Below are positions 42,638-43,389 of a stretch of 43,535 nt of DNA, piece after piece. A program made the position numbers and the translations under genes. The notes under the pieces were generated by a model, which was not told the DNA's origin, searched no databases, and worked only from the letters and a program-made list of their open reading frames with translations. Source of the DNA: a virus (lineage: Duplodnaviria > Heunggongvirae > Uroviricota > Caudoviricetes); IMG/VR virus record IMGVR_UViG_2740892272_000004; one strand, written 5' to 3'. Position 1 is the first letter of the stretch; every line of letters starts with the position of its first letter.

Positions 42638-42709
42638 TAGCATTAGCCCGCATTTTGCACTATATCGAGTATTTCGCATTGTTTGGAACGCCTTAAAAGA
42701 CTAAAACCA

Positions 42710-42870
42710 CAGTATCAAATGAGTTGCCGATTTTATAATAAATGACTAATTATTGCACAATCGGTATCAAATAGACCTTATCCGCACATCTAGCCATCAC
42801 CTGTTTTATTTCAGTATCTTACAGGTGATTTCACCTCCTTTCACTAAACCCCTTGTCGGTATCAAATGAT
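42710..42870. repeat. Three direct copies of (C)GGTATCAAAT(G) (42712..42720, 42763..42772, 42858..42867) at the prophage left end, candidate transposase end-binding sites; 9-bp inverted repeat ATCACCTGT/ACAGGTGAT between them
   Basis: Motif recurs three times within 160 bp at the c-end of the prophage, analogous to the Mu L1-L3 arrangement. Confidence 0.45.
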
Positions 42871-43194
42871 TCACCTGGTTATATGTCGCCAGTCGATACC
42901 TTCCAGCAGCATCGCCAGCTGCGCCTGTGTAAGGAACACTTTGCCATCACGGGCTGACGGCCAGGCGAAGCGCCCACGCTCCAGCCGTTTGGTCAGGAGG
43001 CACAGTCCGTCACTGGTGGACCACAGCAGTTTAACCTGACTGCCGCTGCGGCCCCGGAAAATGAAAACATGGCCGGACATGGGATCGTCTTTCAGCGCCG
43101 TCTGTACTTTCGCAGCCAGGCCGTTGAAGCCATTTCTCATATCGGTGATACCGGCAACCAGCCAAATTTTGATCCCGGAAGGTAACGGGATCAT
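42871..43194 (-). CDS. IS66-family TnpB (orf2) accessory protein, C-terminus altered at the prophage junction
   Basis: Translation ...RNGFNGLAAKVQTALKDDPMSGHVFIFRGRSGSQVKLLWSTSDGLCLLTKRLERGRFAWP...LEGIDWRH matches the conserved IS66 Orf2 family; homology ends about 3 codons before the stop. Confidence 0.8.
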   Translation of the reverse strand: MIPLPSGIKIWLVAGITDMRNGFNGLAAKVQTALKDDPMSGHVFIFRGRSGSQVKLLWSTSDGLCLLTKRLERGRFAWPSARDGKVFLTQAQLAMLLEGIDWRHITR

Positions 43195-43389
43195 CGCTTC
43201 AGTTCCTGTATCAGCAGAGTCAGGAGCTTTTCGCTGACATTGCCATTGAAGCGGAGCGTCCCGTGCCGGAACGTTACCTCACAGCTGATACTGAGGGTTT
43301 TCGGGTCCTCTGCGAGCGATTCTGGCTGTTCGGCAGCTGCATCGAGAGTCACAGGAAGTAGCTGGGGGCTCTCTGAAGAAGGTAATAGC
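43191..43389 (-). pseudogene. IS66-family orf1 (TnpA) C-terminal fragment, 5'-truncated by the IS3-family insertion
   Basis: Short ORF overlapping the orf2 start in the typical IS66 arrangement; the upstream portion is replaced by the IS3-family terminus at 43390. Confidence 0.55.

Follow-up and report, generated by a model that had tools for sequence, protein, structure and literature searches.

How did a Mu-like bacteriophage come to lie inside an insertion sequence (IS) with only one of its ends in place, and what do the repeats at that end do? These questions are raised by a stretch of viral DNA of 43,535 nucleotides, IMG/VR record IMGVR_UViG_2740892272_000004 (hereafter the window, meaning the whole stretch), in which the left end of a prophage adjoins an IS66-family element that is in turn interrupted by an IS3-family element. 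An earlier note, made from the letters alone, had described a Mu-like phage inserted at the orf2/orf3 junction of IS66, a history made of successive transpositions, and three direct repeats as a candidate set of transposase end-binding sites. In our view the locus is best explained, with good though not complete assurance, as the left junction of an Sp18-like Mu-type prophage in an IS66 element of Shigella sonnei, with repeats that are sites for the transposase, a later deletion of the right end of the phage, and IS600 as the last arrival. The features on which this rests are, in window coordinates:

42884 to 43194, minus strand: IS66-family orf2 (TnpB), codons 1-103 of 115 (Pfam TnpB_IS66, E = 1e-37; alignment to intact orf2)
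42871 to 43194, minus strand: chimeric open reading frame (ORF), orf2 plus four phage codons (HITR) and a stop at 42871-42873
43191 to 43389, minus strand: IS66-family orf1 (TnpA), last 65 codons (protein alignment to intact orf1 of phiv205-1 and of L011)
43390 to 43535, minus strand: right end of IS600 (IS3 family), the orfB 3' end and terminal inverted repeat, inserted in IS66 orf1
42709 to 42883, minus strand: left-end block of the phage (attL), terminus 5'-TATAACCAGG at 42883, conserved in relatives, with similarity collapsing right after repeat L3
4373 to 42883, minus strand: Sp18-like Mu-type prophage body, 38.5 kb, complete apart from the terminal 118-120 bp of its right end
4371 to 4372: deletion junction, a TT common to IS66 orf3 (...CCAGGGATT/TCAG) and phage (...GTTTTT/AAGCG), from three-way comparison and alignment limits
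3958 to 4372, minus strand: last 415 bp of the IS66-family element, the C-terminal end of orf3 (TnpC) and the right inverted repeat GTAAGCGTGCAG... (Pfam DDE_Tnp_IS66, DDE_Tnp_IS66_C)

On the left side of the phage the alignments place the last IS66-homologous position at 42884 and the end of phage homology at 42883 (...CCTGGTTATA), where 19 aligned left ends from other genomes fix the terminus. As had been noted, the orf2 fragment gives way directly to the left end of the prophage (42883/42884). A terminus at 42873, where the minus strand reads TG, was also considered and rejected, since the relatives put it at 42883. Alignment with intact IS66 elements, which had been proposed as a check, shows a true junction and an orf2 that is not full length. 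The break falls inside orf2 and misses the supposed orf2/orf3 junction: 34 nt (about 11 codons) remain to the stop of orf2 and 83 nt to orf3. The statement that the conserved sequence ends about three codons before the stop is right for the chimeric ORF. The orf1 C-terminal fragment reported earlier is present as the last 65 codons at 43191-43389. The orf1-side IS66 DNA is 99.2% identical to MN340231, and the piece at 3958..4372 is 99.8% identical to MN340231 6310-6724. Fragments of all three IS66 reading frames (orf1/TnpA, orf2/TnpB and orf3/TnpC) are found, collinear with the intact element. The terminal inverted repeats of the IS66 family start with GTAAGCG and its target duplication is 8 bp; the right repeat is present from 3958, and the left end lies outside the window. 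In sister assemblies this left inverted repeat is truncated by 9-11 bp (L011 1-95, L010 8180-8275) and abuts an IS1 end in one assembly and DNA beside an IS110-family gene in another. As an aside, CP026866.1 carries many copies of the same IS66 variant in which orf3 is often split, with pieces that end in the same 115-aa fragment; thus, the 115-aa ORF at window 3996-4343 is not specific to this locus.

On the right side of the phage, we show here that DNA has been lost from both partners. The deletion junction reads ...CCAGGGATT/AAGCGTTC..., with a microhomology of 2 nt; to its left lies IS66 and to its right the phage from about nt 119-121 onward. By alignment, window 4371-42883 corresponds to nt 121-38626 of the intact 38,626-bp prophage of E. 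coli HH35. The part that is lost is the terminal 118-120 bp with all three right-end sites, R1-R3, and no copy of the right-end 125 bp occurs anywhere in the window. On a single element of 2,443 bp the two IS66 pieces occupy 511-925 and 2174-2679, with order and orientation preserved, and the 1,248 bp of IS66 between them are missing. Since a phage end and part of IS66 are both missing, the history needs at least one deletion besides the transpositions.

With the right junction gone, the window offers no target duplication to read. Relatives of the phage provide it. Flanks were aligned for 19 left ends and 19 right ends, which lie next to different DNA and document the mobility of the phage as well as its termini, 5'-TATAGCGCGG...CCTGGTTATA-3', i.e. 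TATAGCG...GGTTATA. The insertions have more than 15 different flanks, the many unrelated sites and short duplication of a Mu-type phage. In all ten relatives in which both ends could be paired, a direct repeat of 4 bp flanks the phage, and never one of 5 bp. Removing the phage and one repeat copy restores the empty sites at ybaE and dgcE with 100% identity over 296 nt, and GenBank LC727881 (phage Mu_JNE082796) also annotates a 4-bp duplication. TA termini are found at 18 of the 19 left ends and at all right ends; only the left end of Mu_JNE082796 has CA. We had also considered that ...TTATA might be a mutated ...TTACA that inactivates the phage, and rejected this as TA is the norm in the lineage.

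These data leave hardly any room for the view that a complete Mu-like prophage inserted simply at the orf2/orf3 boundary of IS66, with a 5-bp duplication and a history of only three transpositions. Such a view is suggested by the clean left junction near the end of orf2 and by the equally oriented IS66 sequence that flanks the phage left and right. However, on the other side the phage has lost its last 118-120 bp and IS66 has lost 1,248 bp, the break is inside orf2, and the 5-bp duplication that one had been advised to look for is not only beyond finding here but foreign to the family, whose ten insertions and two verified empty sites all give 4 bp.

A further alternative starts from the deletion itself. 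The IS66 fragments may come from two copies, or a larger rearrangement may have taken place, such as a deletion of many kb or recombination among the paralogous ipaH islands or IS copies, which are abundant in S. sonnei. The size of 1.37 kb and the history with a single IS66 would then be wrong; the phage would still be one-ended. The surroundings give this some substance: IS elements have heavily reshuffled this part of S. sonnei genomes, in ten complete ones of which an IS600 at 2088/2089 is followed by different DNA; strain 53G harbours a phage copy whose right end is intact, within a tail-fibre module of 99% similarity; and the truncated left inverted repeat of IS66 abuts IS1 or other DNA in the sister assemblies. 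Nevertheless, both fragments match the uncommon mosaic IS66 of phiv205-1 (99.2% and 99.8%), while their identities to ISEc8 are 99% and 87%, and they are collinear, of the same orientation and non-overlapping, for which a single copy is the simplest explanation. We therefore regard an origin from two copies or a larger rearrangement as unlikely. Several points still weigh against a deletion within one IS66 copy. The allele that preceded the deletion was not found by exact-pattern scans of genome representatives, metagenomes and IMG/VR. Look-ups by exact protein brought up no independent assembly with the deletion junction, only further copies of IS66 and paralogous ipaH islands, or no match at all. 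Two IS66 copies with a larger deletion between them could also have supplied the pieces. Exact-pattern scans of the same three collections for the left junction of the window and for the junctions of the 53G type gave no matches either.

The order of the remaining event can be read from a sister sequence. The IS3-family terminus that had been recognized at the window end is indeed there; it starts at 43390 with TGAGGTGTAC... and belongs to IS600. As the window holds only the last 146 bp of IS600, identity, ends and duplication were read from the full copy at the same site in S. sonnei CP176614.1 (L010 8542-9805), which is 1,264 bp long, 99.9% identical to annotated IS600, ends in TGAGG...CCTCA and is flanked by a 3-bp target duplication, GCT. 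The draft contig CWZC01000017.1 has the identical phage/IS66 junction, yet its orf1 is uninterrupted and free of IS600. Hence, IS600 inserted after the phage. The nesting described before, IS600 in orf1 and the left end of a Mu-like phage in the same IS66, stands.

Returning to the history with a single IS66 copy, four steps would account for the locus. An IS66-family element would first have entered a lambdoid tail-fibre gene beside ipaH3. The phage would then have transposed into IS66 orf2, 34 nt before its stop. In a third step an illegitimate deletion, with its 2-nt microhomology and a size of at least 1.37 kb, would have taken the right 118-120 bp of the phage (R1-R3) together with the 1,248 bp of IS66, and finally IS600 would have inserted into IS66 orf1. 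Insertion of the phage and deletion probably happened separately, in a single copy of IS66. Since both ends are required in cis for Mu-type transposition, the phage copy is most likely without transpositional replication. It is presumably immobile, and probably so only through having a single end, its genes being all intact.

The second question concerns the repeats at the left end, for which the following features are needed:

42856 to 42867, minus strand: repeat L1 (repeat family search, D2)
42761 to 42772, minus strand: repeat L2 (same search)
42709 to 42720, minus strand: repeat L3 (same search)
39586 to 41673, minus strand: MuA-like DDE transposase, 695 aa (Pfam HTH_Tnp_Mu_1 and Mu-transpos_C)
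41676 to 41906, minus strand: ner-like early regulator, 76 aa (Pfam HTH_35, E = 1e-21)
42092 to 42637, plus strand: repressor gene c, 181 aa, XRE/HTH_3 type (Pfam HTH_3), reading toward the left end as in Mu

Three direct repeats had been noted at the left end, and three are present, but only two of them are exact: GGTATCAAAT occurs at 42763-42772 and 42858-42867 only, and the third copy, AGTATCAAAT (42711-42720), has one mismatch. Their start-to-start spacings are 95 and 52 bp where 96 and 51 had been given. With up to one mismatch the 10-mer is not enriched over the window as a whole (five found, 2.3 expected; 7 of 100 shuffles reach five). The 8-mer core TTTGATAC, in turn, is present in four copies in 43.5 kb against about one expected, and three of the four share a strand and lie no more than 160 bp from the phage terminus (Poisson P about 8e-10). 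The intact prophage of HH35 has TTTGATAC three times at the left end and three times, inverted, at the right end, with only one more copy in 38.6 kb. Measured from the terminus, the TTGATAC cores start at nt 19, 114 and 166 on the left and, in intact relatives, at nt 19, 41 and 76 on the right, so that the outermost core is equidistant from both termini. The consensus is about YATTTGATACYG. Inverted site repeats at both ends with a fixed outer distance, a hallmark of Mu-type phages, are therefore found in the lineage, of which the window keeps the left set only. In the end blocks of relatives, conservation stops just after the third site. Relatives in IMG/VR whose baseplate proteins are 27-50% identical keep a T(A/G)(T/A)A(G/A)CG terminus and TTGATAC at nt 19 and 41, usually also near nt 75, in otherwise different sequence. 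The proposal that the triple repeat is the end-binding set of a Mu-like family with ends unlike those of Mu gains strong support from the motif's presence at both ends of related prophages, as judged by sequence.

Along these lines, L1, L2 and L3 would be binding sites for the MuA-like transposase of the phage. Bound at L1, the transposase would be in position to cut at the terminal ...TTATA-3' (42883), L2 and L3 would be accessory, and the left sites would assemble the transposition complex with the three inverted right-end sites. The transposase is 23% identical to MuA over its full length (BLASTP, E = 1e-13). Sequence comparison with PDB entries matches its residues 2-62 to the MuA I-alpha domain (1TNS) and residues 362-424 to retroviral integrase cores; D308, D374 and E414 are its putative catalytic residues. 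Some observations weigh against this function of the repeats. Binding of the transposase to the TTTGATAC sites is something that we infer. Comparison of its residues 63-300 with MuA 77-260 (I-beta/I-gamma) gave no detectable sequence similarity (E = 2.5). The AlphaFold model of residues 63-300 is poor (mean pLDDT 54.7) and derives from a shallow alignment in which the listed homologues are all at least 79% identical, and with this poor model Foldseek returned no PDB match with E below 0.8. Among close relatives the spacers are as conserved as the sites, a constraint specific to the sites being visible only in the distant IMG/VR relatives.

The repeats might instead serve another protein or process, namely a repressor, Ner, a host bending protein or a pac signal. 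Mu has its pac site near the left end, which fits such a role, as does the conservation of the spacers among close relatives. A similar half-site (TTTGATAAC-N7-GTTATCAA) also lies in the c-ner operator region, where the palindrome AAATTTGATAACTAA/TTAGTTATCAAGTTT at 41932-41963 has TTTGATA in common with the end sites. This palindrome, however, varies with the ner allele, and Mu_JNE082796 lacks it while having all six end sites; it is probably an operator that stands outside the end system. In addition, the motif occurs three times inverted at the right end, far from c and ner and from any left-end packaging signal, its outermost copy sits at nt 19 from both termini, and distant relatives keep it at nt 19 and 41 amid different sequence. 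Thus, a role for another protein or process appears quite improbable, and sites for the transposase remain our reading. The possibility that the TTTGATA-like palindrome between c and ner is a transposase enhancer, an internal element to which the N-terminal domain of the transposase binds in Mu-type phages, was considered too and found no support, as it co-varies with ner and not with the end sites. Within the L1-L2 spacer, all aligned relatives keep an inverted repeat ATCACCTGT-N16-ACAGGTGAT at 42796..42829 (perfect over 9 bp, with a 16-nt loop), which may be a site for packaging or for a host factor.

How does this end system compare with those that are known? In Mu, each end has three MuA sites, of which L1, R1 and R2 are the core set (PMC3145075); the CGAAAR cores of Mu lie at 22/127/167 on the left and 22/44/61 on the right. 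Both phages have three site repeats per end that are inverted between the ends, an outer site equidistant from both termini (nt 22 in Mu, nt 19 in the Sp18-like phage), R1 and R2 22 bp apart and L1 and L2 separated by a long spacer, of 105 bp in Mu and 95 bp in the window phage, and both begin with c-ner-A-B on the left and have com and mom on the right. In contrast, the site sequences are unrelated (a TTTGATACYG core against ...CGAAAR in Mu), R3 is direct in the Sp18-like phage and inverted in Mu, the termini are 5'-TA...TA-3' instead of TG...CA and the target duplication is 4 bp instead of 5 bp. The presumed end-binding region of the transposase has no recognizable sequence similarity to that of MuA, and the repressor in the window is of the XRE type and not of the Mu c type. 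The lineage therefore lacks the 5-bp duplication and TG...CA termini of Mu sensu stricto (Muvirus: Mu, D108, SfMu), and on sequence it shows neither the MuA I-beta/I-gamma domains nor the Mu 22-bp site consensus. Another Mu-like phage known from Shigella, SfMu of S. flexneri, is closely related to Mu and D108 and shares more than 90% identity with them in most of its proteins (PMC4406740). Identity of the window phage with SfMu was rejected, since SfMu belongs to the Mu/D108-like lineage and the only close matches of the left end in the phage collection are Sp18-like inserts.

The lineage of the window phage is that of Sp18 of E. coli O157:H7 Sakai and of the Sp18-like phages of Shiga toxin-producing E. 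coli (STEC). The assignment was made through the phage set that is called Sp18-like in PMC10132054, Sp18 itself not being among the aligned sequences, and is based on nucleotide matches at both ends to Mu_JNE082796 and to O157:H7 prophages. Mu_JNE082796 (LC727881) shares both end blocks, all six sites and the 4-bp duplication, and in O157 genomes the mom region matches at 95% and the left end at 79%. The S. sonnei copy differs from the Sp18-like phages by its missing right end and by an immunity region of another allele (about 79% identity). Sp18 has been reported to be intact and packaged (PMC2669165), and Sp18-like phages occupy variable sites (PMC10132054). In the literature searched, neither a description of this lineage's end sites came up nor a paper stating a 4-bp duplication and TA termini for enterobacterial phages. 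TG-CA ends and duplications of 5 or 6 bp were given as the rule in 2021, when TA-TA ends were described as new in Leptospira (PMC8705779). The Leptospira WETA1 group resembles the Sp18-like lineage in having TA dinucleotides at both ends of a Mu/B3-like transposable prophage (PMC8705779). It differs by its B3/Tn552-type transposase, a 6-bp duplication and the lack of an enhancer-binding domain, while the Sp18-like lineage has a 4-bp duplication and a transposase with a MuA-like N-terminal I-alpha domain.

A terminal CA is near-universal in Mu-like transposition and the strands are joined 5 or 6 bp apart. Against this background we suggest, as a tentative idea with slightly less than even prospects, that the Sp18-like phages of Escherichia and Shigella are a mechanistically distinct Mu-like branch with a TTTGATAC-core site, an end-binding region unrelated to that of MuA, cleavage after a terminal TA and 4-bp joining. 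The sequence facts behind this idea are directly observed; their mechanistic meaning, and whether a description is really lacking so far, are uncertain. If the idea is right, the S. sonnei copy would be a natural one-ended mutant of this system. The window itself is of little consequence, being one more nested locus that is now correctly dissected, but exact termini and six candidate transposase sites are now defined for a widespread Mu-like lineage that departs from Mu in two textbook parameters, the 4-bp duplication and the TA termini. Sp18-like phages would escape annotation pipelines that search for 5-bp repeats and TG/CA ends. With 55 intact genes and a copy that is probably grounded solely by the loss of one 120-bp end, the locus is also a clean natural example that gene content alone is insufficient for calling a prophage intact.

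That the remaining body is well preserved follows from the comparison with HH35: identity is 99.48% over 38,514 bp, and all 55 proteins of the HH35 prophage have full-length, stop-free counterparts in the window. The phage type is supported by the c-ner-A-B order and by MuA, MuB, Mom, Com, Gam and Mor domains; in particular, the MuA-like DDE transposase is encoded beside a MuB-like AAA+ protein, downstream of the divergent c and ner. In identical E. coli prophages the repressor is labelled as transcriptional regulator. Two further features complete the picture:

38571 to 39512, minus strand: MuB-like AAA+ transposition protein (Pfam Phage-MuB_C and AAA_22)
4379 to 5270, minus strand: com and mom, the rightmost phage genes (Pfam Mom, E = 2e-77)

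The latter are annotated as Com and Mom in 100%-identical E. coli copies, and the mom stop lies 7 bp from the deletion junction. Farther inside, a Gin-like recombinase gene adjoins inverted tail-fibre segments (window 8745-10730), where 9379-9521 and 10590-10730 align to the HH35 phage in the opposite orientation; like Mu, the phage has an invertible host-range segment here. RefSeq annotation of E. coli relatives contains a feature 'tRNA-OTHER' at the equivalent of window about 25307-25427, between the ORFs 24833-25306 and 25428-26759; scans of the whole window for tRNAs (ARAGORN) and Rfam families gave nothing, at this position included.

Relatives of the phage were found in about 233 of 5,426 complete E. 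coli genomes at many different sites, some of them 99.5-100% identical. The copy in S. sonnei 53G (HE616528.1) is 99.84% identical and has its right end intact (L173 8790-11007), joined to the equivalent of window 3334 in the tail-fibre remnant. Its 2.1-kb flank resembles several paralogous ipaH islands to the same degree (99.0-99.2%) and so gives no assignment of the 53G locus. A transposase-mediated adjacent deletion may link the 53G copy to the window copy. A 10-nt string, ATTCACCTGG, occurs both at the left terminus of the phage (42869-42878) and in the tail-fibre gene (3321-3330), 4 nt from the 53G insertion point; this may be a coincidence or a hint of recombination. Another copy with the same transposase allele is present at an unrelated site near cutC in CP180015.1, a 4.94-Mb chromosome that is apparently from S. 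sonnei with this IpaH3, which would mean that the phage moved or was acquired more than once in S. sonnei.

Outside prophage and IS66, the window contains the following features:

301 to 2016, plus strand: ipaH3, a type III secretion effector and E3 ubiquitin ligase (Pfam LRR_TTSS and NEL)
2196 to 3942, minus strand: lambdoid tail-fibre and tail-fibre-assembly remnants of the ipaH island (ORFs)
1 to 143, plus strand: a second IS600 right end, inverted relative to the copy at 43390-43535 (reverse-complement identity of the window ends)

In public records, the exact ipaH3 sequence carries the name IpaH3 of Shigella sonnei Ss046, and the junction-specific chimeric TnpB is, like IpaH3, filed under the name of Shigella sonnei. 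The DUF4376 and phage_tail_N genes of the tail-fibre remnants are also present in paralogous ipaH islands, and the remnant DNA is the earlier target into which IS66 had inserted. In the ten complete S. sonnei genomes referred to above, IS600 lies 72 bp downstream of ipaH3 (window 2088/2089) and is followed by different DNA, with excisionase and integrase genes; the window lacks this IS600. Such an IS600 with a changed flank points to an IS600-mediated rearrangement of the ipaH island. At least five mobile elements are nested around the IS66 left-end point. As nesting of IS elements and decay of prophages are usual in Shigella genomes, the locus is an ordinary one, of a kind that is already understood. 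Finally, the window is bounded by inverted copies of one IS600 end (1-143 and 43390-43535), which is typical of a short-read contig that ends in repeats; the same inverted ends at both extremities are also a substrate for inversion of the 43-kb segment.

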